This document shows positions 20,900 to 64,000 of a stretch of DNA of 64,000 bases, in pieces. This DNA is from Eremomyces bilateralis CBS 781.70 (Eukaryota). The notes under the pieces were generated by a model. It was not told the origin of the DNA. It searched no databases and saw only the letters and a program-made list of their open reading frames with translations. A program made the position numbers and the translations under genes. Every line of letters begins with the position of its first letter. Position 1 is the first letter of the stretch. The stretch is taken from the NCBI GenBank assembly GCA_010015585.1, contig ML975160.1. One strand, written 5' to 3'.

Positions 20900-23337
20900 G
20901 GACCAAGTGATGACAATTCGTGCCCGATCCTTCGGCATTGATGACAAGACGGCCCAAGAAGAGCTTGGAAGCCCGTAAAAGCGCGCTTGTACATCGTTTC
21001 CGCCATAGATATCTTCGCTTAGGCAGCAAACAAGTCTCCGAGATTCCACAGAGTGTTAAGCGCTGGACTGTATCTCGCAACGACCTCTGTTCCCATCGCC
21101 TCTTCGTATCCATGCAGCGTTTGCATGTACATATTCTCTGCCTTACCCTGACTACCTTGGTTTGCGTAGAGCAGGCCCAGGTTGTTGATCGTACCGAGCG
21201 TCGAGATGTGCTTCGGTCCAAGTGCCTCCTCCTTTCCTTGCAACGCTCGCATGTACATCTTCTCAGCCTCACCCAGCTTGCCTTGCTTGGCATAGAGGTT
21301 GTCTAGGTTGTTGACCGTGTCAAGCGTCGATGTGTGCTTTGGCCCAAGTGCCTCCTCAGTTCCGTGCAGCGCTCGCATGTACATCTCTTCTACCTCCTTC
21401 AGTTTCCCTTGGTCGGCGTAGAGCAGGCCCAGGTTGTGAACTGCCCATTCAATACCATTCTGTGAAATGCCGCATTTTGATATCATAGATAAACACCTTG
21501 CTACATGCTGGAGGAGTCGTTGCCGTATAACCCACCATTCTTTTATATTATTTCCGGGAACGTGTAACCCGATAAACTTTAGAGTTAGCCTCACAATGTC
21601 ATTATTCCACTCTGGATTTAGAACATGCATCGTCCATGAGTGTACACAGCTATGCATTCTGTACCCTCCTGACTCCACTGAATCCCGTGAGAACGAGTTT
21701 GCTTCCACCAGTCCGTGGTTACACAACACTCGAACCGCTGCAACGAAGTTTTTTTGGTCTTCTGTGAGTTTTCGGATCCATTCTGGATCACTTGAATCGT
21801 TATGACAGGGAAGCTCGAACCAGAGGTCCTGGTTGTCAAAATAAGCCCACAACTGAAGGAACTGAGCCGAAAGTCGGTTCTGTTGTTCCACATGCTTGTA
21901 CGAGATGTTCCATGTGGTGTAGAGCGTTCGATCTTCGTACGAGTTCAGCTCAGGACTTTTCTCTTTCAGTTTCAACCATGATTCTTTATATTGATGAAGG
22001 TACTCAGCCAAACCGGTCGATACTTGATCAAGATATGCTCCGGCGGTCGCAAGTGCAAGAGGGAGCCCGTCTTATTCATTGACGAGCTTGATAGCATCGG
22101 GATCTGTCATCCTAGTTAGTATCCTCTCTATAGGGTCAAAATAATCCTCACCATTGTTCAATCCTTCGCGTCTTGACACGTTCGACAGGATCTTAAGGCA
22201 ATCCTGCACATTCTCCAGCTTTTGGACTGGAATGCCATGGCCGATTTTGACCTGCGACGACCGCGTGGTGATGATGATTGATCCTTGATAAGATTCCAGC
22301 AGGTACTTCTTAATGTCCAATGCCGTCGGATCCGTGTTACCTGGTACCTTGGAATTGTCGTAGTTTTCGTATATGGCCAGCCATCTTACGTTATTTCGGA
22401 GACTCAGCCACTCTTTGACGGCTTCTACCACTTCATCCAAGCTTCCATTCAAATCCACGGCGTTAAGACACTGGGCAGACGGATGCTCTTGGCGTATTCT
22501 CCGGGCAGCGTTCGCAAAGCTTTGCTTCAGAGAGACTTCATCTTTGATATTCAGCCACAAGATCGCTGAGTATCTATCTCTATATCGCTTCGCGTATGCA
22601 ACTGCCAATTGAGTTTTACCAATTCCCCCAAGGCCATGAAGAATAGCAACGCAACGGCTGCCATCGCCTCTGAGCGCCTTGTGTATTTCCATGAGCTCTC
22701 TTTCTCTTGCAACGAAGTGCTCGGTTTCAGCAACATCGGAAAGACTGAAAGGTATCGCGAAGTCTTCGAAGTGACGACCTATACCGGTCAGTACCCCCCC
22801 CACGGTTTCATAATGGAGAACGCCTTACGATTCGATGTATTTTCGATCTCAGCATGAAGCCGTCGAAACACATTATCTCTCCCCTCACCATAGATCGGTG
22901 AAATACTCACGCCAAAAATTCCCAACAACGAATAGACTTTGTCTTCCTCTTTGGTAGTCTCACGGTCCTCGGTCCACGATATTCGTTCCGTGACGCCGAA
23001 TTGAGAGAGGAGCTTTCTTCGAAGTGCCTCGACTGGGATTTCTACAACCTCGCGAATTTGTCGCTCTAGAGATTTCTTGCTCCCAAGCTTCCTACAATCG
23101 TTGGAGAAAAACTCCACCGATTCTGGGGCGATCAGCTCTTGCAGAGTCTAGCCTCGAGTGAACCATCGACTTTTTCGAAACTCGACTTTCCAATATTGGA
23201 AATGCGAGTTGTTAGGGTCCAAAATCGGTCCTGCGACATCCGAGAGGTAGACATAGCATCGTTCTGCATCGCGATACCACCGAAACATGGAGTTGATGGC
23301 TTCTGAGAGCTCGACAAGATTGGTCTTATCGATGCAG
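20900..23337 (-). pseudogene. HET-NB-ARC-TPR NLR, 3' portion, disrupted
   Basis: HET core CIDKTNLVELSEAINSMFRWYRDAERCYVYLSDV and SRWFTRG*TLQELIAP (TGG to TAG at 23148-23150). P-loop HGLGGIGKT, IIITTR, and NE*DGLPLAL (stop at 22072-22074). TPRs of the form NLGLLYADQGKL...ALGPKHTSTL. The 3' end is approximate. Confidence 0.92.
21130..21440 (-). repeat. Tandem 126-bp (42-aa) TPR-coding repeats
   Basis: CCAAGTGCCTCCTC and GCTCGCATGTACATCT recur at 126-nt spacing. Confidence 0.8.
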
Positions 23338-23658
23338 ATGGGATCAATCTAGGCGAACATACCCAGTACGTTCTCCTAATGGGTTAATCCCTGGGACCCC
23401 CTCACCAACCGAGCTCCATTCCCTTTGCGCAATACTACGATTTGCCGCCAGACAAAAGTAGAAGAATAATAATAAAAGCATAGCCATTTCTCAGGGCATT
23501 CCGTATGGATATATATAAGACTAGTTATAACTTGTGGTCGAGTCAATCTGGCCGTCGTCCCAAACAGGCCTCTGGCCTAAATGGGCTCCGCTCTCCATAC
23601 TGACCGAGCCCAATCAGGCTCCTTAACCCAAATAGCCATTTATCGCAGTCCAGTATCC
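23338..23658 (+). repeat. Conserved element left end, copy 1
   Basis: Closely similar to 36460-36791 and 57150-57430, e.g. CAATCTGGCCGTCGTCCCAAACAGGCCTCTGGCCTAAATGGGC is in all three copies. Confidence 0.95.
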
Positions 23659-23714
23659 GTGCCCCATGACCGCCCCTCCCTTGCGCTTTTGCGGTTTACC
23701 AACTAATTAATACC

Positions 23715-23915
23715 ACATCGCCGAGTCCTATTACATATCTACCTCCTCACTTGGAACGCCTTCTCCGATGCCTGCTATCAAACCAAACCGGATTGACGTG
23801 AATGCTGACTTCACCCGGATGGCGACTATCGCCGCTGAGCTGGTCTCAGTAAGGTTCTCAGATAGACAGGCGATGACGACATTATGTTGGTTGACTTGTC
23901 TGAGCGCGTAAATAT
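23715..23915 (-). pseudogene. PNP_UDP (nucleoside phosphorylase) NLR effector-domain fragment
   Basis: NIYAL-QVNQHNVVIACL...SAAIVA...FTSIRFGLIAGIGEGVPS matches the usual HNVVIACLP...FPSIRFGLMVGIGGGVP pattern, but is degenerate and truncated. Confidence 0.75.
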
Positions 23916-24414
23916 TTGGGATTGAATGGGCTGCGAGAAAGCCTGGGATATCTTGCGGCTTCCACACATCTAACTTAGAATAGCTGGCTTGGGAAAACAG
24001 GAGGGTCGAACGGTATGGACTTTACAACGAATGATACGTATTGCATTACCATGCTTAAGTTGTGTGTTGACTTTGCTCTTTGAATTGCTGCGTCAAGAAA
24101 TTCAGAATAGAGAAACACTGAAGAGAAAAGCTGAAGAAGGTGACGATTCATCACGTGCCATCTCCTGGCTGAGATTGGCAGATAACCTGGCCTTGCGGAC
24201 TGCATTTGGCGCCGATAATGGTCTGTCCTTAAACCTCAGTCAATCTCTCAAGACACACAGCTCGTAGCCATGATTTTGTTGTGATACGTGGCCTATCTGC
24301 CTATCTTCCTAGCGATGTGCCCTTCCCCAGATCACCAGTCGGTCAGGTTCACCAATGAAGGAGGAGTAGGTGGAGTCCAGGCTAGTCAGAACAACGTGTA
24401 TTGTGGGCTTTCCG

Positions 24415-24615
24415 GTACCATACCTGCCCAGCCACTTAGCCAGAAGATATGCCGCTTGTCTTCTCCATCGACCCATTTCCTGATATCGTTAAGGACGTTG
24501 ACTCGAGTGCCAGGGATGCAGAGAGGGTCATCTCCTTTCTCCGATGCGTTGAATGTAGCGTTGGGCGCGTAAGGGAGGGAGTTTCGCGGATTGCGATCGT
24601 GTGCAGTCCCGCTAT
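24415..24615 (-). pseudogene. NACHT N-terminal fragment, HET-E-like NLR
   Basis: LPYAPNATFNA...PLCIPGTRVNVLNDIRKWV...IFWLSGWAG breaks off just before the Walker A GKS. Preceded by a CTAAC...TAG intron end. Confidence 0.75.
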
Positions 24616-24640
24616 AGACAATCACGCCGTGTTAGTAAGC

Positions 24641-27116
24641 TTAAAGAGAGATGGTAGACCGAACTTACTACACGTTGAAGTCCCCATCCCATACACGGTC
24701 CATCTGGTTCATTCCTTTTTAGCGCCGGGAGAGGCTTGGTGGCGCCAAGTTAGCGTACTAATAGACTCCAATCACAACGCGGTACGAAAATTACAGCTTT
24801 TGGGCCTTTTTTTCCCGCTCCATTGCTCATGGCAACTCTAATCTGAACAATCGAAGCGATCAACTATGCTTTCGATGCTCCCATCAGCTTCAGACGCCAC
24901 CGCTTCCGATGACGAGGTATCTGAGGATGAGCTCACCACTGAATTTGTATGGAGAGTGCCGTCTGATGCTACCACCGCTGCGGAAGCGGATCCGGAGTCC
25001 CAATTACAGCAACCTCAGGTTGAGCCTGCAACATCCTCCGCTGGATCTCTCCCTACGCCAATTGGACAACCTGGGGATGTCTCCTACATAGCTATTGATC
25101 CTGCTACTAAGAGGCCTTTAGGGCAGCCTGGGACGTACTTTAAAAAGATGCAAGGATACGTCTCATACTATCACTACCCCGAAGCGTTGCTTGATCTCTT
25201 CATTGGCGTCTAAGGCCCTCTCTGCGCTACCGACACCCAGAGTGTATCCTGTGGGACTCCAGGTTGTACTGGCTGCGGGATTTTCCATGGCAATGGTCAG
25301 TCCCTAGACCCAATGCTTCACGATCGCCCTCCCGCTTCCTTCGAAGAACTTGCTGAGCGATGGGATCTTCCGCTTGTTCTTTTCTCCCAGCTATTTGATG
25401 AAGGCATTTATAAGACGATCGCAGAGCACTCCAACCGGTACGCCCAGAGGCATGAAATCTCGATTAGGCCTGTTACCGCCGGCCATATCCGGATATGGCT
25501 GGGCCTTGTCCTTTACATGGGTACCCTTAATATCGCTTCTCGAGGGGATCTCTGGAGTAGGAATGGCCAGCGGCCTCTTCACTGTATCTCTAGGTTTATG
25601 TCCTTTCGAAGATGGAAGCAGATCAAACGGATTATCCACCTCTCTGATCCCGATACAGAGCCGCAGCCGACCTCCGTCCTCGACAAAGTACAACCAATTG
25701 CCTCGCTTTTAGGTGCTCGCTTCAGCCAAGTATATCTCCCCTCAAACTACGTCTCAATCGACGAGATTATGGTCAAGTTTACGGGTCGATCAAAGGAGAT
25801 TGTCTCTATTAAAAGCAAGCCTATCCCTGTTGGCTATAAAATCCTTGCCCTCGCCGATAGAGGCTATGTTTATAGCTTTCTCTTTACCTCAGGAGGAAGC
25901 TTTGATACCGGAGGAAGGAAGGATGCATCATCAATCCATGGTGTAAACTATCAGCCCCCCCATGGATACGAGAATCTTGAGCTTACGGCTACCTCAAAGG
26001 CGGTTATTACCTTGGCAGCCTCTCTTCCTGTCAGTCTCCGCAAGTTTGTTATCTTTATGGATAACTACTTTACCAATATTCGCCTGCTCTCAGTCCTTCG
26101 AAAAATGAGGATTGGGGCCTGTGGGACGACTAGGACGTCGTATAAAGAGTACCCGTTACAGCACTTCAAAGAGGTAAAGGACAATTGCAGATGGCCGCTT
26201 CAAAAGCAGGACTTCCTCTGCGTTCGCGATGTTGCCAGCCTCTTATGGAAGGATCGGGTACTCGTACGTTTCCTCCATACCATTTTTGAGCCAGAAGAGA
26301 ATGATTGGGCACCTCGGAGGCGTCCCGCGACTAGTACAGCTGCGTACCAGCGAGAACTTGATCAAATCTACCCTCCTGGGGTCCACGACATACCGGTTCT
26401 ACAACCCAAAGCTGCCAGACTATACAATAGCTTTATGGGAGGCGTCGATATCGCGGATCAACGCCGAGCTTACTTCACATCGCACCTAATTAGCCAGAAA
26501 ACATGGCATCCTATTCTCTTCTGGATACTCGATACGACTGCTTCGAACGCTCATATCCTCGGTACATGCCAGTTTCGAAAGCAGAATATTAGATACCTAC
26601 AGAGCCTTAAGGATTTCCGTCTACAGCTTGCCTGGAATATGGTCATCAAAGGTATCTCAGATGGTCATGGTCCCCGAGTAGTACAGGGCTTCAATGAGCA
26701 GGAAGGTCCTCAATTCGAGGCAACCGAGGGATCAGGAGATCCGGTAACTCGTACGTACGGCCAAATACGGAGTTCCCGTATCATACTACTCTTAGAAGTG
26801 GTGTTCATCGCCTGGCACGAATTTCAAGAGGGATGCGACGATGGTGTTGGTTGTGTAGGTGGAAAAAGCTAAGGGATAACCAAATCAAGGACCGAAGGAC
26901 CTTCTTTTGCTGTGAGATCTGTGGAGAAGGATTTCCTCTCTGTACTAGTTGTATAGAACCATTCCACAGTCAAAGACCTAGCTAGATACTATTAGATTCC
27001 TCTAACTATGGTAATTGTGTCTATTTACTTTATATGAGGATTGCATACAAATCAAATGGGACACCTTTTTTTTATATATATTTTTTTAAATCCTACTCCA
27101 TTTCAGCTGGCTTTAA
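24641..27116 (+). mobile_element. piggyBac-like DNA transposon, defective
   Basis: Contains a piggyBac-type transposase pseudogene. Candidate TTAA sites at 24641-24644 and 27113-27116, both read inward as TTAAAG. TIR similarity beyond that is weak, so the ends are tentative. Confidence 0.7.
24866..26985 (+). pseudogene. piggyBac transposase (DDD) with C-terminal Cys-rich domain
   Basis: Motifs SIDEIMVKFTGR, KPIPVGYK, FMDNYFT and YNSFMGGVDIADQ. A frameshift near 26755 separates the WCWLC...CCEIC...LCTSC-H domain. The N-terminal part is also interrupted. Confidence 0.85.
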
Positions 27117-27329
27117 GAGCCGCTATGCTGGGTATTTCTATTTTACAGGCGGGCAGCCTCACCGTCTCCGGTGGGTTAGAACTAGATATGGGCAGGGCGG
27201 ACAGTGCGGGGGCCATCGGCCCCGCCTCATCTATACCCAAGGGAGTGCTAAGACTCCCGAACTGGATAGCATCAAACAATTAGGAAAAAACCCTCGGAAA
27301 GACCATAGACAATGGTAGGGGTTCTACAA

Positions 27330-28520
27330 GGAGAAAAGATTAAAGCAGTATAACTCCCGCCTGGGATGCTTTATTATTAGGCTTTGTTTGTTTCGGGACG
27401 TTGGTACTATCCGTCTTCACACGGTGTCGGTGGAGACTTACTGTTGATGTTGATCGGAGATACAACATCGGTGGTAGGTTAGGTGAGTTGGGTGGCGGTC
27501 TTCAGTTGCCTGAATTGGCTTAGAAGACCTGTTTGGACCAATAGTTTTGTTGCTTTTGGGGCGTTTGCGGCGGTTCCTAGGAGGATCCGAAGGTCTGTAG
27601 GCTGGCCGTCAGGCCAGAGTGTGTCACGTAACTGGTTAAAGTTCGGGCATTCCGTAAGGATGTGCCTTGGGGTCTGGTCTGTACCGCAAGTACAGAGGGA
27701 CGAATCGGCTGCGTTGATGCGGGAGAGGTAGCTGGCCAGGGCCACCTTCCCGGAGCGAAGTTGTGTCAGAACTGATGATTGGGCCTTGTTCAGAGATCGA
27801 TGGATCTTGAGTAACGCGCGCGATGGTTTCGGGGCTAAGCGGAAGAGTGTTCGCCTGTTCGGCCTCTTTCGCCGCGTTCCCATTCGGTCGCCCACTCGGT
27901 GGCGGTGCAGTCGCGCGTGTCTCTTCTCGTAGCAGAGAGGAGTGTTAAGTGGTCCTCCGGTAGGGAGGCCCTAGGCCCATCGCAGCTTATCCCCATCCAT
28001 CCTGTAGCTCGTTTTGCTAGTTCGTCAGTTTGCTCGTTGCCCAGGATGCCGGAGTGGGAAGGGATCCAGTGGAAGTGCACCATGTATCCCGCGCTCATGA
28101 AGAGTTGGTGGCGGAGGAGGATGTCTATCACGTAGTATTGTCCTGAGTGGATTTGGGGGCTTAGGAGCGCTTTGAGGGCTCCCTGGCTGTCGGCGAAGAT
28201 GTAGATGTGGGTGGCCTCTGATGGAAGTGGGATTCGGCGTTGGGGGATCAAGGCAACCGTCCTTCTCTTGATTTCCGAGTGCTGGTCTGCCATGTCCAGC
28301 GCTAATTGGATCCCACGAAGTTCGGCTGCGTAGATGTTGCTCACGGACCGGGGGCCCATGTAGTTCATCCGCTCTTGACGTCTGGTTGGGAAGTAGGCAG
28401 CGGCTCCTACTTGTCCGTTTAGATCACTTCCATCGGTGTAAAACACGAGTTCGGTGCCGTAGGCCTTCTCATTGTGTTCCCTGGTTGCCATCTCATCAGA
28501 GTGGGCGATACGGGCATCCG
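27330..28520 (-). mobile_element. 5'-truncated LINE (Tad1-like) remnant with RNase H and C-terminal CCHC
   Basis: Motifs VFYTDGS, YAAELRGI, IFADSQ, HWIPSHSGILGNEQTDELAK, LTQLRSG and CTCG-QTPRHILTEC. Frameshift near 27880. The ends are approximate. Confidence 0.85.
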
Positions 28521-28844
28521 GCTTGAGTGTTCATGGCGGCCAGTTCGCCGATCAAATGTGACATCTTGATAAGTAAGAACTCGTAATTCTTCCAAACTAG
28601 GCTAAGTGCTTCAGGGGGTGGTGCTAGCGCGGCCATGCCAAGTGGCATGAAAACCTAGTAAGGGATGCATGCATCAAATCTGTAATAACAACTGGCGTGA
28701 TCAATCTTGGCAAGCCCCCTCCTTTTCCAGATACTGGTTCCCTCGCAGCACTTTATAAGACCGGCCAGAAATCCCCACTCCATGTTTCGTAAATATCACT
28801 GCCGATGCCGGAGTGACAGTCCATTACGAAGATCGTGCAAAACA

Positions 28845-31800
28845 ATGAAGTGGCGATTTCTGAAGCTCGGCAAGCAAGGCCAAGACAGGAGCAAGGTCGA
28901 GGAAGATTCCACTAGTGGCAGCTTGGCGCGCTCCCCGCCCAAACGATTCGGCCTCTTCAAGCTCCCCACCGATGAGAGCGTGGCCGATACGAACAATCAT
29001 GAGCACTACTACCCAGTCAACATCATTGCAGTACATGGCCTGAATGGTGGTGCGTACACCACATGGACCCATGATAATGGGACGTTTTGGCTTCAAGACT
29101 TCTTGCCAAAGCTTCTGCCTGGATGTCGCGTTTATACCTATGGATACCCTTCTCAGTTTGCCTTCAGCAAGTCATTAGCAGAGGTACAGGAGTACTCGCG
29201 ACTACTTTTGAGCTCAATAAGAGACGAATACGAAAATTGGGATCTGGTACTTTCAATCACATTGTCCGGTACCCGTTAGAAGAGCATATTAATCTGATGT
29301 TATCGAAGGGCTCTCGTACTATCATCTTTGTCTGCCATAGCCTCGGAGGCATTGTTTTTAAACAGGTTGGTTTATCACCTCCTGATATCGACTCCTTACC
29401 CAGTGCTGACTGCTGTAGGCTCTAGTGATTGCTCATGAAGATGACGTGGTGTATGGGGAAATTCTTAAATCCATTGCTGGTGTTGTCTTCCTCGGAACAC
29501 CACACAATGGCAGCGGCGTTGCGAATTTTGCAAATACCGTTGGCAAAATAATCAATGCCATCATAACAACAGCATCTTCTGGAGTTCAAACTAGAGCCAT
29601 CAGAACCGACCTGTTCAACTACCTCAAATACGATTCTAAAGCTCTCAAGGACCTCGATGTTTCAGTTCGAAATCGATTCCATGATTTAACTGTGGTCTCA
29701 TTTTGCGAAACTGAGCAGGAGTCTCCGTTCCCTTTCCCGGTGAGGCTCAACTCTGGCTTTATTTGGTCATGTTACCTTAGACCGACTGGAGGAACCACTG
29801 ACACTTTAGCAGATTGTCGATAAATACTCGTCAACTTTGGGCATACCAGGAGAGGAGATCATTCCTCTAGGGGAGAACCATCGGAGCATATGTCGATTCG
29901 GTGGTGAGACAGAGAGCTACAAAAACGTTTCCCGATCCCTGCGAAGAATCGCAAGAAACGCTCTAGCCAGAGAGCAGGCGTTCAAGCGAACAAGCATCCC
30001 TTCCTCTGACAGGAGTGAGTCGTTCTGGTTGCGAACCAACGTCCCAAGTGCCTAACACCTGCTAAGCTCTCGATGATTCCGAAAAGACCTGTTTCAAACA
30101 ACTCGGAGTCTTTGACGTGGCGGACGTCAAAAGGATATCACCCTCACCAGCCAAGGGCACCTGCCAATGGATTCTAGGCCATCCTAGGTTCGTTTGCTGG
30201 CTTGATCAAACGGAAAATACCCTTCTGTGGCTTACAGGCCGTCCCGGCTGTGGTAAGACGATAATGTCGCTATTCTTGGCTAAACAGTTAGAAGAAGCTC
30301 GGTCAAATCGAGCTCCGAGCAATGTTTGCGTATTCTTCTGCAATGACAGACTCAGCGCAGAAGACATCTTGAATGGATTAATATTTCAGATCATCAGTCG
30401 TCATCGTTCACTCATCCGACATGTGAAGAGAGAGTTCGAGATTCAAGGCCAACACATGTTTCGGTCATTCACAACACTTTGGAATCTACTGGTCAAGATT
30501 GCAACAGATCCAAAATCTGCCACAACTTCTATCATAATTGATGCATTGGATGAGTGTAAGAAAATCACTCGCGATAATCTTTTGCTCTCGATTCGAGACT
30601 TCACGAACACATCAAGCGATTCAACGGGAAGCAAACAGCATGTCAAATTTATTTTGACTGGCCGCCCTGAGCTAGTTCATCTCGAGAAGAGCGTCGGCAA
30701 CGTCGCTGAGCACGAAATTGTAATTGACGAAGGTCAAACAGGCTATGACAGAGACCTACGGATCTTCATCCAACAGAGACTGGACGAAATTTGTCAAAGA
30801 CACAATTTGTCCCACGAGACGATGGAATTGCTTCGTCAATCACTCTACTCCAAAGCCGGCCAAACCTTCCTGTGGGTACATATGGTGCTCGAGTCATTAG
30901 AGAGCAGCCTGCTTGCGTCAAAGAAGGACATTCAAAACATCATTACGCAGATTCCACCGGCCCTGGAGAAGACGTATTTGTGCTTCTTATCCGAAATACC
31001 TTCTAAGTACATAAGCAAAGCTCTGATGCTCCTCAAGCTTATAGTGGGAAGCCTAAGACCTTTAACGTTAGATGAGATCAACATCGCCTTCGCAATAGAT
31101 GCGACTCATCGCACGTTAGGAGAAGTTACATCGAACTGTCAACCTGCTATTTTACTCACCATCCAAGGTATATTGGGGCCCCTGGCCAGAGTATCGGACA
31201 ATAAAGTGATGCTAGTCCACCCATCGGCCAAAGAATTCCTTTTACAACGTAAGAGCGCCGGTGGCGACTTTCCCGCGATATACGCGATTAGCGAGGAGGA
31301 ATCTGCGGCTCTCACTGCATCCGCATGTATGCACTACTTGCTGCTCAAGGACTTCTCTGTGGATCTTTTCGAACTTGAAACTTCGCCTACCGAGTCTAAT
31401 TCCGACTACTCTGATATGATCGAGGGCTCGGTGGTTTCCATACCATACGGCAGCTTTTGGAACGAAGGCACAGACGACCTCGATGCCTTTGGCTTGTTCA
31501 AAGACCCTGGTCTCCTTGATGCGGAGATATGCCAAGCCCTCGTTTCAAAATACGCTCTCTACCAGTATGCATCTCTACATTGGACTGAACATTTCGCCCT
31601 CTGCGAAACTACTGCACCTGTGGAGCTAAGAGAAACTGCCAAGAAATTACTTGATACAGAAACTCTTAACTGTTCCAACTGGCTGCGTGTCTTTTCCGCG
31701 GAGTTCGATGCAATTGGCCGCAGCATCCCTAACAAGCCTGATAAAGTCACTCTGGCGGCTTACTTCGGCCTCCACGAGACTCTTAACGATTTGGTCAGTA

Positions 31801-32876
31801 GTGACAAATCAATTCCCCCCGTACAGAGGGACCAGGCCTTGTTCTGGGCTGCCCATGAGGGCCATGTTAGGAATGTTAGCATACTCCTTGGAGTAGATGC
31901 AGATCCGAATGCTCGGAGTTCTAACAGGGAGACGGCACTCATCGCTGCTGCTCGGAACAACCATCTTAACTGTGTAGTCACCCTTTTGGCAGACCAACAG
32001 ACTCATCTGAACATTCGAGGCCCGAAGGGGCGGACAGCGTTGGCATTTTCATGTAGCAGTGGACACGACCAGGTTGTCAAAGAACTGCTAAGTCGAAATG
32101 ATTGCATGACTGAAGAGGAGGACGATAGTGGGGCCACTGCGCTATTTTGGGCCATTGGAGGTAGCTACATCTCAATCGTCTCCGAGTTGGCGAATCTTCC
32201 GACAGTTGATATAAACCATCGTGACAAGAAAGGCCGCACGCCCTTGTCCTGGGCAGCGGGAGATGGAATGGAGGAAGTCGTGAAGGTATTGCTCAATATG
32301 CGCGATATCGACTCCAACCTGGAAGACTCCAACGGACGATCACCTCTCTCCTGGGCAGCTGGTAACGGCTGCACAGCGGCAGTCAGAGTTCTCCTTCGAA
32401 ACAATGAGGTGGACAAGGCAAGTCTTGACAAAGACCAGAGGAATGCAATCTCCTGGGCGAGTGCAGGTGGCCACTCGGATACACTGCGGATGCTTCTCAA
32501 TCGCGGATGTCCGGGAGTCGATATCAAGGATGTGGATGGCTGGACTCCTCTGGCATGGGCAATTCAAAATGATTCTCCGGGCACTGTGGAAGTACTCCTT
32601 TCGAGCGGGTCAGTCAACCTAGAACAATCGGATCATAGTGGAAGAACACCACTATTTTGGGCGGTTGAATACGGCCATATTGAGGTTATCAGGATACTTT
32701 TGCGCGAAGGCGCTGACCCAGAAAGACAAAGCCATAAGGGCGAAACGCCACTCATTAGGGCAGAGAAAGTCGGACGAGCTGATATCTCAGACGAACTTCT
32801 CAACCATGTGAGGCAAGGAGGCAGCATGACGCATTTCGAGCAACGAAGTCAGGTACCAAGTGCGATGCGTAGGTGA
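28845..32876 (+). CDS. NLR-like protein: SesB-type alpha/beta hydrolase, NACHT, ankyrin repeats; apparently intact
   Basis: Hydrolase motifs IIAVHGLNG, FVCHSLGG and FLGTPHNGS. NACHT motifs GRPGCGKT, IIIDALDEC and FLWV. About ten ankyrin repeats (GRTPLSWAA). Four GT-AG introns between about 29247 and 30066. Confidence 0.9.
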
Positions 32877-32924
32877 CTTGGTCTCAAGGTGGGGTTAATT
32901 GCGGTTAAACTATTGTTAAATTCG

Positions 32925-33037
32925 CGGGTAGAATTACGATCTCCGTGCCGAGAATAAACAGTAGTCCTATAGATGGTTTCCGCAACCGCTGGCACCAATG
33001 TCCCGCATAGGGCTAGTAAAGACGCTTTTAAGAACAT
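32925..33037 (-). pseudogene. N-terminal fragment of a secreted histidine acid phosphatase
   Basis: Signal peptide MFLKASLLALCGTLVPAVA followed by VYSRHGDR (RHGxR motif), after which similarity is lost. Confidence 0.55.
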
Positions 33038-33847
33038 GATGAATACTCCGTAGCTTTAATACTATAAAACTCGAACCAATAAATTCGATCCGAGGAGTAG
33101 GGCATATTTCCTATTAGACCATGATAATTTCCTGTAGATAGCCCTGCTAATGAAAAGATCACAAGCCAACGATTAACGCATTTAACTGAGTGTACCTATG
33201 CTTCTATCTGGACTTCTAGCTCCTCAAACTTCTGGCGTAGCGTAATCAAACCCGGATGTGAGGGTTCACGATTAGTGGAATCGGAACAGTTTGAACGTTA
33301 TCGAATTGCTAGAGAAAAGAAGAAGAAGAGGAAAGAACCTCTCTCCTGGCGGCGTATCTACTTCCGCACCTTTGCAATAACACAGACATTAGCCTGAGGC
33401 CATACTATATAGCATAGTAACATGAACAAAGGCAAACTCCTCCAGGCCGCCAGGGCAACAACTAACAGTCTGGGCGCATAGCCCTTATCTCAGCTGGGAC
33501 TCAGCCGGCAGATGATTCCCCCTGCTAATGTGGCGTTCCGCTATACCCGTAAAGGCCCAGCCGCTTCTCTTAGCTCTATCCACCAAAATTCGACCAATCA
33601 TATCCCATAAAAGCAGTGGGAACCACTGCCGTCTAAGAACCTTCTGCATCGTTTGTGTGAACGTGTGGTTTGAAAACCGACTTTTGTTATATACGCAGAG
33701 AGTGACTCCCAATACAATTTGTTTTATACGCGTTCTTGACATTTTCCCTTCCTAGGCACGTTCTCCACGCCGAATATAATATATAGTCCAACTTTGGGAC
33801 CTATCCGAGCTTTCCACATTGCAAGACCGTGTCATCTTGTTTTCAAT

Positions 33848-49393: not shown

Positions 49394-49497
49394 GGAGGTA
49401 GAGCTGGTAAGTTCCCTATTCTGGTTCAGCCATCCCTGTTTTAGGTTTAGCACCTCCGAGCTCTCACCCCGAGCATTGCCGAGCCTTCTTCGATGTC
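49394..49497 (-). repeat. ~105-bp dispersed repeat, copy 2 (inverted)
   Basis: Reverse complement reads GACATCGAAGAAGGCTCGGCAATGCTCGGGGTGAGAGCTCGGAGGTGCTAAACC...GGGAACTTACCAGCTC. Confidence 0.8.
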
Positions 49498-49701
49498 ACA
49501 GGCTCACAGCCCGCGTTGGGTGAGCTAGTGTGATACAAAATGGTGTCTCTTGTGATTCGCAGACCAGTCGCAAGTGAATATTAAATTGTGTATTGGTTGC
49601 GCACTGCGTTTAAGACGAGACTGACCCTTAAGGAATCAGGAGAGAAAGAGAGAGAGAGAGATTCATACGCCTGTCAGGCCTCTCGGCGAGGCCCATGTGG
49701 G
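49493..49701 (-). repeat. ~200-bp inverted repeat, right arm
   Basis: Reverse-complement match to 42354-42552, with a GA microsatellite in place of part of the left arm. Confidence 0.9.
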
Positions 49702-49745
49702 AAGTCCAGGGTGGCTATTTAGGCAAATACAAGCCATTCCGGCTT

Positions 49746-51432: not shown

Positions 51433-52447
51433 TTATTTGTCAAAATCCAGAGGCTCTAAAGTGACAAAAACTTCCTCATCTGTTTCCTGGGGATCATTAT
51501 CATCCTCGTTATCATCTGTATCATCCCCATACTCGTTTTCGCCATCTGATGTAGTGAATATTCCCTCTGGCTGTCTCTCCGGTCGTCGTTGTATCGGTGA
51601 TACAACATCACTTTGGTCAATCGTTCTGATTGTGTCAACAGTATCTGCTCGCTTCCTCCGTCTTACTTTCCTTTTCGTTTCTTCCATCTCCAGTAGTTTC
51701 CGTGTCGTTCCGTCTTGCTCGCGCGAATACACCAAGAGCAGACATTGACGATGAAGGCGGGCCCTTGGTTGTGGCCGTTTGGCAAGAAGAGCTCGAGTCT
51801 GGAGCAATTCCGGGTGATGATTCGGCGGCCGACGCCGCTCTAACCNNNNNNNNNNAAAGGCTCGAAATCGGACTGCGTATGCTGCGCCATCGTCCATGTC
51901 CCGGAGAGTCTCCTCCAACTCTTGTCCTCGAGATCCTCTCCCCCATTTTACCTCAGACGTGCTTAGGAGCGGAGCATAAGGATGTCGAGCCAACTCGACT
52001 CGAATTTCATCTGGGAGCAGCCATTATCCAGGCGGCTTGAAAGACCAAACTTTCGGTTCCATCTTTCGTATGAAAAATATACGCGCCAGTTCGGTCCACT
52101 AACAATCGAGTCAACAAAGCGTGGATAAAGAGCTCCCGGCACGAGAAGATATGCTCTATGGCTTGTTCATCCGCTGCCCGTAGCCGTGAAATGAATTGAA
52201 ACAGCTTGGTGGTAATATGAGGTAAGTCCATGCTAACAGTCGTCTCCAGGGATCGAATATTTTGTCTAATCAAGGGCTCCGTATCATCCAGATACCCGCT
52301 TGATGCGACAGTCGGAGGCTCGCATGTTAGGATGTCCATTTGGGCGACGCGTGTTGGATTTTGGCTTCTAGTTGACTGGTGTTGATGGTCTGATGGCGAT
52401 TCCGAGCGCCTCGAAGGGAGAATTTCTGACGAGTGACCCCACTCCAC
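51433..52447 (-). other. Unassigned ORF fragments spanning an assembly gap (10 N at 51846-51855)
   Basis: Coding-like fragments with a basic/acidic C-terminal tail and no recognisable domain. The gap is directly visible. Confidence 0.3.
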
Positions 52448-55833: not shown

Positions 55834-55939
55834 GACATCGACGAGGCCGGGCAAAACTCCGGGTGAGAGCTTGGCGGCGCTAAACCTGAAAGAGCGGAGC
55901 TAAACCGGAAGAGGGAAATCGACCAGCTCCTCAATCTCC
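55834..55939 (+). repeat. ~105-bp dispersed repeat, copy 3
   Basis: GACATCGACGAGGCCGGGCAAAACTCCGGGTGAGAGCTTGGCGGCGCTAAACC...CCGGAAGAGGGAAATCGACCAGCTCCTC. Confidence 0.85.
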
Positions 55940-56924: not shown

Positions 56925-57142
56925 ATAGTTATGAGTTATCTAACTAGTTAACTATAACTACAATTAGTTAATAGAATGTCAAAAAATCTTGTTAATTAAA
57001 TATTTTGGTTTCCCTCGGAAGATATTAAGTGCTACTGAACCTGTATGGATCAAAATATTTCCGTTGTCCAGAGCCAAATCCTCACAAACTTGAGGTTCAA
57101 TCCTCAGCTTTCTGCAGCATCTGCTCCAAGATCGATACGTTA
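56925..57142 (+). repeat. Element right end of unit B
   Basis: AT-rich TAGT-type tract followed by a conserved terminus. 57083-57142 matches 63849-63908 at 58 of 60 nt. Confidence 0.9.
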
Positions 57143-57149
57143 GATGCAG

Positions 57150-57537
57150 ATGGGATCAACCTAGGCGAACATACCCAGCAAGTTCTCCTGATGGGTTAAA
57201 CCCTCTCACCAACCGAACTCCATTCTCTTTGCGCAATACTACGATTTGCCGCCAGACAAAAGTAGAAGAATAATAAAAGCATAGCCATTTCTCGGGGCAT
57301 TCCGTATGCATATAAGGCTAGTTATAACTTGTGGTCGGGTCAATCTGGCCGTCGTCCCAAACAGGCCTCTGGCCTAAATGGGCTCCGCTCCCCATGCTGA
57401 CCGAGCCCAATCAGGCTCCTTAACCCAACTAGCCTTCCATCCCAGTCTAGAACTAGCCTCACGAAATAGACCCAGGCTCCCAGGCAATATGTAGCAAGGT
57501 GCCCCCTGTTGATTTCAATGCCATGGAGCAATCCTAT
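57150..57537 (+). repeat. Conserved element left end, copy 3
   Basis: Starts ATGGGATCAACCTAGGCGAACATACCCAG and aligns with copies 1 and 2 with small indels. Confidence 0.95.
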
Positions 57538-59199
57538 GCCCATAACAATGGTGGACAAATCTCAAATGCTGATCCCCATGCTTAGAATATGCCTACTTTG
57601 CACTTACGAAATCTTTCCTACTATCTCCATCTTTGAATGATATCATCTATTGCCGACCTCTGGTTATCCTGGTCTATCGAATGGGAAAGACCGTCTTAGG
57701 TTGCCTAGTGCACTTGCCTAGTGCACTTGCCTAGCAGTATTAGGCTCCGCGGTCGTTCTCCCCAAACATTCCCACGCACCGCAGCAATAGAGCATTCCAG
57801 CAGCAACTCTCCAGTCCACGTTTCTCCAGCATTTAAATCGTGGAGTATGGCATTCCAGCGTCGAAGTCCCAACGTTAACGAGCTCGACCATCGCTGAATG
57901 CCGATAACCCCCTCGAAGTTGCAGAAGCCCACAGCTGTGCGATAGGGTATGCTCTCTCATCTGCTTGTCCTCTAGCAGAACTCTTTTATCGAGTTCAACA
58001 AAAACGGTGCGCTTCCCATTCAGGACTGTCATATCTTGCTACGTGAGGCTGCGCTAGGGTCCTGTACGATCCCAATTTGGAGAACGAGCAATACTCCAAA
58101 CTTGAAGAGGCACGATACTGATCAGCACTACCGGGAGACGATAGAGCACAATCCGATAACGAACGAAGACCCAAGGAGAAGGTTTCACGGGAGAAGCGAA
58201 GGACAATAGAATGTTCTCTTTGATGGCGTGAGGGAGTTGGTGAAAAGAGCTCACTTGCTGATTTTTAGATACAGCCTAACAATCAAAACAGCCCATGAAT
58301 ACACGCAACTAACGTTACTGATTAAAGGCCTTCGCTCTGTTAGATAAGTGTCATTTCTCTAAATGGAAAGACGTCTAAAATTGGAAGTCCAAGGATCCCA
58401 AAAACGAAGAGAGTTTGGTGCTGAACATTCCGATATATGCGCTCTGGAAGGCCATACCCCTTTCTCCGATCGAGGATTTGAACATCCCATCCACGATTCC
58501 TTCCATACTTTCCTGCATCAAACACCACTATCGCAACATCCTCGCCCCCCCCCAACATCTGCATCAGCTGAAGGCCTGGGTTAAGCCGTACCTTGGACCG
58601 GAAGAGTATGAAAGGCGGCAAACAGTCAATTCCGCCTATACTCTCCTACAGTGCTGGAGGAAACTTATCGCCAAAGCCGACGTTACGATACTCTAGAAAG
58701 GTAGAGATCACGTACTAGCTACACTCGTGATGTTTTGGGGTAGAAAGGTTACCTTTATGCACCACAGGCCTATTTTAGGATGTGTAGTCGCATGTGTTGA
58801 GAGATAAAGTAGCAAACAAACCACTACTGGGGGATACACATGTGGATTAGATACCTCTTTCGTTCCTGCTTTCCTTTTCTTTTTCTTCATCTTTTTTTCG
58901 TTGTATACAAGCTGTTTTACTATGGTGAACCATCTCCATGGTCCTCCAAACTAGTACTGAGACATTTTCTGTGGCATTGGCATTTAAGGGTTCCCTGGCT
59001 GTACGCATTTTGAACCGAAGACGTCCCTAGGTATAGTTGGATCACCATTTCAACCAACTAGCTCTTGCTTTTGGGATTGTTGAGCAACGCTCTGTATAGA
59101 GTGCAATATGTGTAACTAAAGGGGTTGATGGTCTATTGGCGAAAACTGAGTAAAGTACAATATTCCTGCCTAGCTAAGAGAAACGCCTCATACATCAAC

Positions 59200-60259
59200 C
59201 TATGCTGCTAGGCGATTGAACAACTCGAATTCCATCCTTTCGGCCGCCTTTGGACCATGAAGAATGTCACCAACCATATCTGAGCCGGGCGGGAAGTCAT
59301 GCTCGAACCGAGGCTCGCCAGCACCCCTCATATTTGCTAGGACAGCCTGTCTGAAGTGCCATCGCAAAACCTGATCGACAGGTCGTTGAAGGTTATCTCG
59401 AAACTTTTGGTCAAGACACTTGCCGGCTAGACCGTTCGCATCGCGGGTGAAGAAAACAATCTTATAGTTGTCCTAAAATAATCGTTAGCCACTGCATCTC
59501 CAATTGAAATACAGAGTATCCTTACGTCGGGGTTAATTGAGAGGTTAAACATATCGAACAACTCGTGTATATCAGTTCGAAGCAACAATCCATTTTGTAC
59601 AGAGTTAATGGCTTCACCCTTCTCCGGCAGAATTGTAATCCAGCGATCGTAGCCGTTCTTCGTCCAATGGTCGTGGTAGGCTAGTGGGAAGACATGAGTA
59701 GCGTGAAACCCCGTCCAGTCGTCAAGGTCGGAATTGATTGCCTCTACTCCAGATATGACGCATCGACGATCTCGCGCACGTACAGCTGCACAGAACGGTT
59801 TGACCCGAGTTCCAGTGGTGTGAGATATCGTACGGAGAAGCCACGGCTCATTGTTGACCGAGAAAGGATCTAGTTAAAAAGCCTAGTTAGTCAAGCACAA
59901 CGAGGCAATTACATAGAAACTTACCAGCAGCAGTTATATAGTACTTCCCCGGCTGAAGCTTGCTGTCATTCCTTTCAATTTAGAAGGATATTTTTTAAAA
60001 TATTCTATTAGATTTTGGTATCGTCCTCATATCGTAATTCAAAGCTACTTGTGAACAAGACAAGAATCTCTACCATCGACAAGAAGTTGGCGTTTGTGAT
60101 ACTGTTTGTGAGGATTAGACCGCCAAGTACTGTATTCCGATCGCTGGCATCATAGATATGAACGTCTCGCCCTCGTGAGCGATCTCTTGGGGTCATAGTT
60201 TGAGTCGGATTAGAGGAGTTGGAGGGGCAGTTTGATACCGGAGAGGATAGAGACGACAT
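59200..60259 (-). pseudogene. HNH endonuclease paralog of 37382-38476, interrupted
   Basis: Shares RDVHIYDA, VLGGLILTN, RDRRCVISG, NSVQNGLLL and ERMEFELFNRLAA, and has the same two intron positions. A ~30-bp AT-rich insertion at about 59980-60010 introduces stops. Confidence 0.85.
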
Positions 60260-62009
60260 TGTAAACGTCGTGGACGCCGTAGACGTATCATATTCATGGA
60301 GACTGTAAGAGGGACCGAAGTAGGTACGGTAATTGAAAATGATGGTAAGAGTCTTCGAGAGTGGTATTGAGTATGACGATGGCAGATTGCGGAACAAAGA
60401 ATGGAGAAACCACAGCCAAGTTCACACTAAGCCCAAAGAGGCAACTTACGTACTATTTCCGTGCTGGAGTATACCTCAGCAAGCTCAGGCTATTTGCGTT
60501 CGTGCCTGAGGCAACAAACCACACTATACCTAATCGGTAAATGCAGTTCTCGAACAAATAGCCTGAGGATCCTGTCAATGACGCTCACTGATAGATCGAG
60601 AATTTGTATGTGTCTTTCACGGTTTTGGAAAATCTCACGCGGTTCATTGCCTCAGGCACTACCACAATAGCCTGAGCTTGCTGAACTTATAACCAGGTTT
60701 TTACTGTAACTGATGCCGCCGCTCAAGGCACGCCAGATGGCTATGCTAAACGGATGATGTATTAATTCTTCTCGAATATGCTTCCGTCAAAGGTCGCGGA
60801 TGAGCCCCTCGCAATTGAATGCTTTTGTTTCTCCATCCTTGGACGAACATGCGGCATCCACTGAATTGGGGATATCATCGTCCGCGTTTCCGCCCATGAC
60901 GCCAACTCGAAGCTGGGATACAGTAGGCTCCAGCATTCTGGGGACTCGCGAGTAAACACATTTTGTGCGGAAGGTTTACCATGAATACCGATCACCCTCA
61001 AGGGTGGTGCATGCGAAAATCCTTAGGTCTCGAAGTTTATTGGTTTTGAATTGACGAGTATGTTTATTCAATTCACCTTGGCCCTCCTGCTGTGCTTGCC
61101 TAAGTACCATCCACGAGCAAGATGGCACGTGTGCAGATCCTCTCTTTCTTCGCACCTTCATTAACTATATTTTTCCTAAGAATAGTAGTATGGTGACTTT
61201 GATTCGCATCGTCAAGACACGTCCGTGGACTAATGCTGCCACCTACCCTTGCGTTGGAATTGTCGTATTGAACTTGATATGAACTCTATTCAATAGCCAT
61301 TAGGGTTTCCCAAAACCAAAAATCTATTTCTGCTTAGATCTCAGCTGGGAAGGACTTCCAATGCACCCATCAGAATGCATAGCATCCAATATTCCTGGAT
61401 ATCTACCGCATCTTACCTCCACAGCAAACTCCATCTCCCTTTGCTAAGGCCAGTACCTGCGGTCCTGTCCAATTGTTTCATGTCCCCAATTCTTAATCTG
61501 TAATGACTAGGACCATGAGCGCCGTAAAGTTACGAACAGGCCAGCCTCCAACTATTTTTGGTCACGAAAGTCGATATTACTCAATATGCAAACGCATTTA
61601 TTTTCCGGGACTGCCACTTTCTCGACCCGCCTTCCCTGGATTTACCCCCCGGTCATTCATCAATCTGGCGGTTGCAAAGATATATATGGCTTACGAAATT
61701 GCATGGCCAACAAGAGACTTCAAATGCATGCAAATCGAATGAAGTAATATGGTCTCGACGATGAGCACGCGAATTAAGCTTTCCTGACCTCCATGGCCAA
61801 TGAGTGCGACTCTATCTCGGTATCGATGAACCAAGGGCTCTAATGAGATGTTTAGAACTTAAACCTGCGGTTTCCTTGGAATTTCTGGACATATCCATAT
61901 TGTCTTGAAGTGGCTGTCAATTTAGCTTGGACTATCTGGATTGTTACTTCTAGAAGAGGCGACACTATTTGATGCCAGTGGACATTCACACTGCACCAGT
62001 ATCGAAACA

Positions 62010-63416
62010 ATGTCTTTCTCGTCCCGCTTCGACACATGGCTTTCATGTACCTTGTTTCTCGTTTTCCTAGCTCTGATATCATTCACAGCAGCAGACGTTA
62101 CAATAATCCCCGGAAATCCAGATCCGAGGCCTTACAATGAGGAATTCGACAGGCGAATTAGTTCCATTGATGAGCTATTTCAAACTAGCGCCTTCAATGA
62201 GGCACACTATACTCTCAACGACACCCATATTATCACCTCTTCTGCAGACACTCCAAACGGAACAATCTCCAAAGACACATATGCGTCATCCGACTCCTTC
62301 GTCCGGAGTACCATCCAAGCATGGGGTCAGCACCATCATCTAGTCATTCGTCCAGACGAAGTATGGTTTACCATATTGGCACAAATGAACTTCTACATGA
62401 ATGACCACGCGGAGGATGTACGTGACGTGTTTGTCACATTTGAAGGAAAGCAAGAAATCAGAGTCTTTGACCGGACATGGCATCAAGTGATTGACCAATT
62501 CGCTGAGGAGATACAAAAACGTGTCAAAACTCCCTGGTTACTCGACTGGATGATGCCGGAATTCAGTACCAGTACGGACAATGACGCGACGACGGCAACC
62601 GTGCTCATGATGGGCCTCTTCCAAGCTTACTTCGACTACTTAGGGGGTATCATTTGCGGATTGCCCTCAGTCACCCTCCTAGGTACCAAGGCCGACTGGG
62701 AGCGACTACTCGCTAAACTCGACCATCTGCCAGATTTTGGTGCCGAGCCGACAATGTACCAGGGCCGTTTGAAACCAATCCTCAGTCGGTTTGTGGAATC
62801 TTTTGATAAACCGAGCGACCCCAAAATCCGCGAGTTTTGGAATTCCATTATCAATGCCGAGCCCCAGCACTTGTGCGGAGGTCCGCCCTACCGTATCTCC
62901 GGCTGGCTGACCGGGTTCATATCCTGGGATAAGGACGGGAAATACATGGCGACCGGGACTACGAATGAACTGCTTGACGGGATCTCATATCCGTCTTATG
63001 AAATCGACAAACTTCCAATCGGGTATGCGGGGACACCGATCACGCTGTTGGACTATCCTCGCCCAAGGGCCCCAAAGTTCCCTGCGTACATAATCGCTGG
63101 CAATCTAGGGAAGGAAATCAAACAAACTGTACCAGCTGGCTATCTCGATGCCCTAGCCAGCGTCAATTCAAGCCTGGCAGATATCGAGCGTGCAGGTCTT
63201 GAATCAACCCCCAAGAAGCATTGGACGGTCCAGCCTCTCAATGCCTGGCTGATGTATGGTCCAGTACCGACGAATGAGACCAATCGCCGGGACAGTGGTG
63301 ATACCGAACTGAACAACTTGGTTAGCATGATCAGGACAGGGACCTGCGATGCGTCTCAGGACCCAGGAAAACCGTTTAATATCCTAAATCCGCCACGAAA
63401 AAGGAGGGCCAATTAG
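62010..63416 (+). CDS. DUF4419 family protein with predicted signal peptide, intronless
   Basis: Motifs HHHLVIRPDEVWFTIL, FEGKQEI, PEFSTST, CGLPSVTLLGTKADW and ISGWLTGF. Hydrophobic N-terminus from the ATG at 62010. Confidence 0.8.
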   Translation: MSFSSRFDTWLSCTLFLVFLALISFTAADVTIIPGNPDPRPYNEEFDRRISSIDELFQTSAFNEAHYTLNDTHIITSSADTPNGTISKDTYASSDSFVRSTIQAWGQHHHLVIRPDEVWFTILAQMNFYMNDHAEDVRDVFVTFEGKQEIRVFDRTWHQVIDQFAEEIQKRVKTPWLLDWMMPEFSTSTDNDATTATVLMMGLFQAYFDYLGGIICGLPSVTLLGTKADWERLLAKLDHLPDFGAEPTMYQGRLKPILSRFVESFDKPSDPKIREFWNSIINAEPQHLCGGPPYRISGWLTGFISWDKDGKYMATGTTNELLDGISYPSYEIDKLPIGYAGTPITLLDYPRPRAPKFPAYIIAGNLGKEIKQTVPAGYLDALASVNSSLADIERAGLESTPKKHWTVQPLNAWLMYGPVPTNETNRRDSGDTELNNLVSMIRTGTCDASQDPGKPFNILNPPRKRRAN

Positions 63417-63689
63417 CGCCCGAGGATGGAAGCCGGCTTTTTCCACGGCAAACTAAGGGACTTCCAGTTGGAGGGGGCAGTCTTGGCTCCTCAGATACGG
63501 TTGCTCTAGGTTCATTGGACAGTACTCTACAGTTTGGCTCTGCAAATGGAGCTGCTGGAGCGGCTATTCGGGACGGATCGAATGTTGACGATGCTGCGGC
63601 ATGCCAGTGGCGATTCAAGGCTACGCAAACATTCAACTGTAACATAGGACCGAGAGCAGAGCCAACTACATGAATTTGTTTAAGTTGCA

Positions 63690-63908
63690 GTAGTTAGTTA
63701 ACTTAACTAAGTTAGTTAACTAGTTAGTTATAAGTTAGTTAAGTTAGTTACAATTAATAGAATGCTAAAAAATCGTGATAATTAAATATATATTTTTCCC
63801 TTGGGAGATATTCAGTGAAGTGTTACTGACTGCTACTGAACCTGTATCCACAAACTTGAGGTTCAATGCTCAGCTTTCTGCGGCATCTGCTCCAAGATCG
63901 ATACGTTA
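63690..63908 (+). repeat. Element right end of unit C
   Basis: (TAGT/AGTT)n tract, TTAATAGAATG, GATATT-AGTG, CTACTGAACCTGTAT and the terminal 60 nt are shared with 56925-57142. Confidence 0.9.
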
Positions 63909-64000
63909 GATGTAGCAGGTGTCCACCCAGAAGTGTTCCAATCCATCACGAGCAGCCTGCTCTCCGCAAAATTCGATCTTATTGTAGCCAGCCTTGTTCT
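63909..64000 (-). pseudogene. HET-NB-ARC-TPR NLR, 5' portion (continues beyond the window)
   Basis: Minus-strand translation NKAGYNKIEFCGEQAARDGLEHFWVDTCYI is the HET segment expected immediately before CIDK. Too short to appear in the ORF track. Confidence 0.9.

Follow-up and report, generated by a model that had tools for sequence, protein, structure and literature searches.

In Eremomyces bilateralis CBS 781.70 (NCBI GenBank assembly GCA_010015585.1, contig ML975160.1), a NOD-like receptor (NLR) gene of the HET-NB-ARC-TPR type is split precisely within its HET domain by a block of DNA made up of three units. The units have common ends, a single 7-base core stands at each of the four junctions, and one unit carries the remnant of a tyrosine recombinase with the DUF3435 domain, the captain type of the fungal elements known as Starships. 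On balance, we read the block that splits the HET gene as a tandem array, now decayed, of site-specific elements resembling Starships, two of which lack a captain; the units themselves are most likely recombinase-driven elements of the Starship type. The analysis covers one 64-kb stretch of the contig (64,000 nt in all; hereafter the window), one genome and one insertion site.

A HET gene is split at a conserved motif

The pieces of the interrupted gene lie on the minus strand at the two borders of the block, each next to a 7-mer:

20868–23337, minus strand: 3′ part of the split NLR pseudogene, with the HET C-half, NB-ARC and TPR (Pfam, phmmer)
23331–23337, plus strand: core at junction J1, GATGCAG, between the HET flank and the left end of unit A
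63909–63915, plus strand: core at junction J4, GATGTAG
63916–64000, minus strand: end of the 5′ HET exon, running on past the window (match to P0174)

On the plus strand, the left junction reads ...CTTATC GATGCAG ATGGGATC... and the right junction ...CGTTA GATGTAG CAGGTGTCC..., so that the outer-border 7-mers at 23331–23337 and 63909–63915 differ by one C-to-T change. On the minus strand, the frame running downward from 23336 begins CIDKTNLVELSEAINSMF... and continues as the HET C-half, while the final bases of the window translate to NKAGYNKIEFCGEQAARDGLEHFWVDTCYI, followed by a stop. When the 7-mer is reverse-complemented, its base 1 falls on the third codon position in both outer copies; because the codon phase is equal at the two cores, excising the 40,571 bp between the HET pieces (23338–63908) together with one 7-mer preserves the reading frame. 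Joining the pieces in silico in this way restores the family motif, with ...DTC standing right before CIDK in 109 of the 120 relatives listed. An earlier note made from the sequence had described HET pieces at both ends of the block, a 7-base repeat (GATGCAG at 23331, GATGTAG at 63909) and an in-phase join, and all of these are present in the sequence. The 7-mer is common in its own right (GATGCAG has 21 matches in the window against 10.3 expected), so its weight comes from its placement at the junctions only.

We then asked whether the two halves belong together. Of 8,000 candidates scored, 7,679 matched the C-half (P0002, with X at an in-frame TAG) at E ≤ 1e-10, most of them listed with PF06985, and the best phmmer match to HET proteins had an E-value of 6e-108. 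Identity reached 68% among the best 120 matches listed, and no ortholog near enough to act as an empty site was found among the C-half matches. Pfam scans, which covered the long open reading frames (ORFs), from 120 aa upward, and 85 ORFs running stop to stop with a length of 85 aa or more, placed NB-ARC in the ORF at 22072–22803 and TPR in the ORF at 21019–22011, both downstream of the HET C-half; HET, NB-ARC and TPR thus lie in one gene, as in a HET-NB-ARC-TPR NLR. For the other half, a search with the N-terminal piece extended past its stop as X found P0174, a protein of 81 aa from the same genome, on a contig of 701,702 bp, which starts with Met, ends at the junction stop and is 100% identical over the 30 aa lying within the window. 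The continuous 5′ HET exon past position 64000 that the earlier note called for therefore exists, since P0174 reaches its Met.

The halves were compared by blastp, using the first 79 aa of P0174 and the C-half against 133 collected HET proteins, 123 of which were usable. The same three proteins, P0021, P0014 and P0018, headed both lists among these 123 comparators (the earlier note had suggested testing whether both halves hit the same best homolog); all three are proteins of E. bilateralis CBS 781.70, with 67–71% identity to the N-half and 62–68% to the C-half. The N-half and C-half alignments abutted in 116 of the 123. Against the Pfam HET model, the C-half alone scored 15.4 bits (cut-off 22.5) over model positions 56–88, starting from its residue 1, and the N-half alone gave no Pfam match; the intact relative P0021 covers model positions 1–90 with its residues 27–114. 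A sub-threshold C-half and an unmatched N-half fit a HET domain cut near model position 55. At the level of sequence comparison, these results support a single HET-NB-ARC-TPR gene that was precisely split and whose halves belong together.

The host gene has since decayed. An in-frame TAG at 23148–23150 replaces the conserved Trp of WFTRGW in the HET C-half, which makes the gene a pseudogene, and its ORFs lie in several frames. Plus-strand changes resembling CpA-to-TpA, the signature of repeat-induced point mutation (RIP), were seen at 23148–23150 (this TAG), at 25211–25213 (a stop before a piggyBac-type ORF) and at 63913 (the C-to-T in the right 7-mer). The last of these may be a RIP-like change or the original allele. 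Two short HET proteins, P0175 and P0186, were considered as truncations at the same motif and rejected, as they read past it with CYIDK or CYINK; since they naturally carry Tyr there, GATGTAG is possibly the original target allele and not a later mutation. The TPR repeats come from three tandem 126-bp units in the 3′ part of the gene, at 21091–21468 (61–75% alike). Over these units, the sequencing runs described below give a summed contig depth about 28x that of the flank, and this repeat type is very common in the sample.

The block consists of three units with common ends

The earlier note had taken the block for a single element of 40.6 kb that entered whole. Repeat searches and alignments did not bear this out, because the block resolves into three head-to-tail units with common ends and the core is found at the internal junctions too, in the order HET′-core-A-core-B-core-C-core-′HET:

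23338–36452, plus strand: unit A, 13,115 bp, without recombinase; left end at 23338, weaker right end at about 36401–36452
23338–23658, plus strand: left end L of unit A; about 90% by blastn to 36460–36791 and 57150–57450
36453–36459, plus strand: core at J2, GATGCAG
36460–57142, plus strand: unit B, 20,683 bp as assembled (a minimum, with an N gap inside); left end at 36460, right end at 56945–57142
36460–36875, plus strand: left end L of unit B
51846–51855, no strand: assembly gap of 10 N, inside unit B
56945–57142, plus strand: right end R of unit B, 74% identical to 63736–63908
57143–57149, plus strand: core at J3, GATGCAG
57150–63908, plus strand: unit C, 6,759 bp, without recombinase; left end at 57150–57537, right end at 63736–63908

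The initial 18 bases of L occur exactly three times in the window, all on the plus strand, at 23338, 36460 and 57150. Over about 330 bp, the three copies of L show about 90% identity by blastn; they differ by 15–21 substitutions per 308–325 aligned columns, mostly transitions, and are about 95% alike at aligned positions. The L copies of B and C share about 85 bp of further similarity beyond the ~330 bp. At the opposite end, R(B) and R(C) are 74% alike overall and 90–95% alike over their last 60 bp, and a 31-nt stretch just short of the R tip is present in two places, 57105 and 63871. At either internal junction, R is followed by one GATGCAG and then by L.

Besides the ends, only one gene is common to units, an HNH_2/DUF7881 gene that B and C share at 69% nucleotide identity:

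37373–38476, plus strand: DUF7881 + HNH_2 gene, in three frame pieces, unit B; Pfam E 4.5e-36 and 5.8e-17
59170–60421, minus strand: second DUF7881 + HNH_2 gene, unit C, inverted relative to B; Pfam, and 54–76% to the unit B gene by tblastn

With identities of about 90% for the ends and 69% for the cargo, the ends have been kept far better, as expected of the cis-acting ends of one mobile family. The start of L and the end of R have no inverted match to each other, which argues against a cut-and-paste DDE element, and neither inverted repeats nor a piggyBac-like end was found inside L. An Rfam scan at gathering thresholds and a tRNA scan of the window each returned 0 matches, so that neither a known RNA gene nor a 5S/tRNA target makes up the ends. 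The 28-nt invariant stretch of L had 0 matches in metagenome scans.

Each L also contains the motif ACCGAGCYCMAT twice, about 190 bp apart (23408–23419 and 23603–23614 in unit A, with equivalents in the other L copies). The motif has 7 matches in the window against 1.06 expected, and these copies may be sub-terminal binding sites.

The middle unit carries a broken DUF3435 recombinase

Unit B holds the recombinase and, farther on, a small inverted piece of it:

39419–41280, plus strand: DUF3435 tyrosine recombinase (captain type), pseudogene, unit B; Pfam 47.3 and 65.6 bits (cut-off 25.8)
41893–41959, minus strand: inverted 67-nt recombinase fragment, unit B; 91% complementary to 39692–39758, 27 aa by tblastn

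Using relatives of 436–876 aa as tblastn queries, we could follow the recombinase over 39419–41280 in three frames, through stops at 40387–40389 and 40912–40914. For this region the genome's own model is P0123 (298 aa), a truncated splice of the gene. The gene lies on the same strand as L(B), and no other recombinase remnant was found in the window beyond the 27-aa inverted fragment. A full HMMER scan of 1.84 billion representatives gave 51 recombinase matches at E ≤ 1e-3; a word-indexed protein search with the recombinase piece yielded 1,411 candidates, 0 of them at E ≤ 1e-5. The earlier note had proposed entry by site-specific recombination, and to that extent the block does contain the gene of a DUF3435 tyrosine recombinase; the gene is broken and confined to the middle unit, and as the maker of the junctions it is a candidate only.

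Comparison with Starships and other mobile elements

Among known systems, Starships of the Pezizomycotina, such as Hephaestus and Voyager, come closest in several respects. They too have a DUF3435 gene reading inward from the left end, NLR cargo, and, at both borders, short direct repeats that agree with the target core and leave a clean join, and their tandem, nested and degraded captain-less forms are described in PMC11162782, PMC9156397 and PMC10104507. According to PMC10104507, Starship repeats arise from DNA matching between the element tips and the target, and for Hephaestus (Urquhart et al.) excision is footprint-free, the captain acts in trans and the needs of the site exceed the repeat. 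The starfish paper (PMC11162782) places the captain at the 5′ end, gives repeats as often 2–6 nt or longer, and describes tandem and nested insertions; part 1 of its Table S1 has repeats of 4–15 nt and sizes of 14.6–464 kb. Degraded captain-less Starship regions are reported by Gluck-Thaler et al. 2022 (PMC9156397). Neither GATGCAG, CTGCATC nor the string that starts L was found in the searched part of the starfish supplement, outside Tables S11–S13 with the curated repeats.

The locus differs from these Starships in other respects. Units A and C are captain-less yet have the same long left end of about 330 bp, and the target is protein-coding sequence, within a conserved motif of a HET gene, whereas Voyager targets 5S ribosomal DNA (rDNA). 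Fungal Cryptons (CryptonF) likewise combine a tyrosine recombinase with short direct repeats and no terminal inverted repeats. Cryptons are a few kb long and without cargo, whereas the units here carry unrelated genes and their recombinase matches Pfam DUF3435. Crypton short direct repeats are thought to come from recombination between a circle and the target (PMC10104507).

Tandem accretion in bacteria resembles the locus in that different elements with related ends are stacked, a core is kept at each junction and some members have no recombinase; it differs in that the host here is a eukaryote, the recombinase lineage is unrelated, the target is a protein-coding and not a tRNA gene, and transfer genes are absent. 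Bacterial integrative and conjugative elements (ICEs), integrative and mobilizable elements and genomic islands accrete head to tail at one att site, and some have no integrase. Starship nesting has been likened to ICEs in PMC9156397.

A proposed route to the array

In the mechanism that we propose, each element would have asymmetric ends, namely an L of about 330 bp and an R with its last ~60 bp conserved, and a 7-base tip, GATGCAG, that matches the target. A DUF3435 recombinase, provided in cis or in trans, would recombine the joined ends (R-core-L) with the matching core of the target, leaving one core on either side with no base lost or gained. As the new junctions would retain the core plus one element arm, relatives could integrate there again and so build an array, in which A and C would be captain-less relatives relying on enzyme made elsewhere. 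We infer this recombination chemistry, the serial order of entry and the mobilisation in trans from the arrangement of the units. The array is old, to judge from its nested transposons, its nonsense changes and the dead host gene.

The reconstructed target was also compared with the R-core-L junction beyond the 7-mer itself. At ±16 nt, 18 of the 32 flanking bases match; on both strands together, 29 of 127,826 window positions score as high, the real junctions among them (empirical p ~2e-4). At ±20 nt, 20 of 40 bases match (98 of 127,826 positions). Such features of the junctions agree with the account that Urquhart et al. give of Hephaestus.

Several points weigh against reading the block as an array of Starship-like elements. 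The 16- and 20-nt flank windows were picked after looking, and at ±12 and ±30 nt the flank match has empirical fractions of 0.7% and 1.7%. The evidence comes from one insertion site in one genome; for J2, J3 and J4 the assembly is the only evidence, and the N gap falls within unit B. The recombinase has nearest relatives that are just 26–39% identical, and it begins about 2.96 kb inside B, after the HNH_2/DUF7881 gene, so that the captain is not only broken but also, in contrast to Starships, not the first gene; being a pseudogene, it cannot be tested as the agent. tblastn of the window found no recombinase in units A and C, and the right end of A resembles the other two weakly, in short blocks only. 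The units are also small, at 6.8, 13.1 and 20.7 kb, against 14.6 kb for the smallest element in the part of Table S1 cited above. DUF3723, ferric reductase (FRE) and patatin (PLP) were not found among the scanned ORFs, which leaves the NLR as the sole Starship-associated family. For the split gene itself, the scores of the N-half and the C-half are, overall, only weakly correlated in rank (Spearman 0.23, p 0.012, 123 comparators). Finally, a transposase that is strict for this 7-mer and duplicates its target would leave the same junctions with one 7-mer each.

Contents of the units and the flank

The following further features were identified within the block:

25214–26982, plus strand: piggyBac-type transposase gene, unit A; DDE_Tnp_1_7 at Pfam E 3.3e-48, zinc finger in another frame
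30066–32876, plus strand: NACHT-ankyrin NLR gene, cargo of unit A; NPHP3_N, NACHT and Ank Pfam matches
34848–36341, plus strand: DUF6589 gene in two ORFs, unit A; Pfam E 3e-27 and 5.6e-29
42342–49713, no strand: nested 7.4-kb element with inverted repeats of about 200 bp, unit B; 42351–42549 and 49504–49704, 86% by blastn
61926–63416, plus strand: DUF4419 gene, cargo of unit C; Pfam E 2.6e-98

The zinc finger of the piggyBac-type gene, zf-Tnp_2, was matched at E 5e-4 and 21 bits, under the 24-bit cut-off, and a search of metagenome scans for the piggyBac-type protein gave 38 pattern matches, with 0 confirmed by tblastn. Unit A also holds an RNase H fragment (Pfam), within 27034–28550. The HNH piece found only Ascomycota HNH_2/DUF7881 clusters in the protein Atlas, and the DUF7881 + HNH_2 genes of B and C have opposite orientations relative to L.

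In unit B, the nested 7.4-kb element contains an intact ORF of 833 aa at 45403–47904 (minus strand), with a weak Sacsin match below the cut-off. Next to it, at 49751–51009, lies a 1.26-kb element with 68-nt inverted repeats (94%) and an ORF with a match to the FAR1 DNA-binding domain of 23.6 bits (cut-off 28.1), possibly a small relic of the Mutator-like kind. Unit B further contains three copies of a 96-nt sequence, two of them direct, at 38454–38549 and 55844–55939 (89%), and one inverted, at 49401–49497 (79%). The direct copies flank the recombinase-bearing 17.4 kb of unit B, and the inverted copy lies just inside the right repeat of the nested 7.4-kb element. The left flank of the block, at 1–20 kb of the window, is made up of ordinary core genes, for a ClpB/Hsp104-type ATPase, a thiolase, a polysaccharide deacetylase, a UDP-glucose dehydrogenase and a chitin-synthase-like transferase.

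Contigs from sequencing runs

Only two sequencing runs, X1 and X2, both of one sample, contain the stretch. Since the assembly was probably made from them, they are not independent of it and serve as a check on assembly logic, not on biology. A 604-nt contig from X2 spans 22815–23418 with 0 differences and thus bridges J1, whereas a 3.2-kb contig from X2 (33338–36480) stops 21 nt beyond the J2 core, too short for a bridge. X1 has an 875-nt contig in which an R(A)-like end is joined to an L, with 17 differences over 109 nt. This contig is not J3, from which it differs at 45 positions ungapped or, with 7 gap columns, at 18; one more R-core-L junction thus appears to be present elsewhere in the sample.

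Variant contigs represent further copies of the L-proximal part of unit A in the sample. One of them has C in place of T at the stop 25211–25213, before the piggyBac-type ORF, and others skip 27034–28550. Summed contig depth over 23.7–27.7 kb is 4–9x that of the flank in X1 and X2, and higher over L; this depth is not a copy number, and the high values next to L(A) are a hint of more copies. A multi-copy element, at 23671–28615, seems to start at or right after L(A). A third run, X3, bears the same species label and has next to none of the stretch's words; only TPR-repeat and short HET pieces appeared, in 4 of 30 bins, and the run is uninformative on an empty site.

Alternative explanations

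The view of the earlier note can be kept if a pre-joined array of three units moved whole, using its two outermost ends, L of A and R of C. We regard such one-step entry as unlikely, though still worth serious thought. The outer ends are a proper L and a proper R with the core, and joints of the R-core-L kind are not unique to the locus, given the further junction that seems present elsewhere in the sample. Set against this, each internal junction is already a complete substrate, and the units differ in cargo and right ends, as fits separate members of a family. The window data do not separate one-step from serial entry.

A second explanation would replace the recombinase by a strict transposase that duplicates 7 bases, either a DDE enzyme or the piggyBac-type gene of unit A, and would make the DUF3435 gene cargo or a nested relic. 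An element that entered at the 7-mer next to a resident copy would likewise give junctions with one 7-mer each, the recombinase does lie away from the 5′ tip of B, and the L-proximal 4 kb of unit A, which holds the transposase gene, is the part with variant contigs and with 4–9x flank depth in X1 and X2, a value that is not a copy number. We nevertheless find this explanation improbable, as the tips of L and R carry no terminal inverted repeats, B and C share the ends without a piggyBac-type transposase, and the target resembles the joined ends past the 7-mer. The target of piggyBac is TTAA, whereas the core here is GATGCAG, and the TTAA duplication and terminal inverted repeats of a piggyBac element are absent.

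An assembly artefact, in which a mis-join across the N gap or at a repeated L gave the impression of a gene split by 40.6 kb, appears very unlikely to us. The 10-N gap at 51846–51855, the threefold repetition of L and the lack of an independent bridging contig for J2, J3 and J4 all leave room for it; J1 is bridged by the X2 contig, though, the L copies differ at 5–7% of aligned positions, which is enough to distinguish them, and the gene halves at the block ends have the same orientation and phase and the same best relatives, unlike a random mis-join. Least probable of all are Helitron-like rolling-circle elements, which form head-to-tail arrays and would account for the asymmetric ends, the head-to-tail order and the short hairpins seen by eye near the right end: Helitrons have a Rep/helicase gene, 5′-TC and 3′-CTRR ends and no target duplication, whereas the ORFs scanned by Pfam gave no Rep/helicase match, the units do not end in 5′-TC and 3′-CTRR, and the 7-base repeat at the outer borders would be unexpected.

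Implications

Core-matched insertion and tandem, nested and degraded Starships have already been published, so the locus adds a case and a testable idea about target sites rather than a new principle. A full-text literature search found no description of non-autonomous Starships, which is weak evidence of absence. If our reading of the block as an array of Starship-like elements is right, the locus would be a compact example of how a site is chosen, through a fixed 7-base core, similarity of the flanks and stacking, and captain-less relatives that keep the ends only would be a signature of mobilisation in trans.

A more speculative idea, which we hold to be doubtful, is that of a small Starship-like lineage specialised on the coding sequence of WVDTCCIDK, the most conserved HET motif, and accreting in tandem, with each entry knocking out a cell-death gene. 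It rests on one site. The motif recurs in many HET genes of a fungal genome, and specialisation on it would parallel the Starships of 5S rDNA. If true, a mobile element would be disarming allorecognition or immune receptors while accreting as bacterial islands do at tRNA genes, and the family would be a eukaryotic partnership of autonomous and captain-less members, with a long left end in common, among recombinase-driven cargo elements. The locus is in itself a record of a HET-type NLR lost to mobile DNA.

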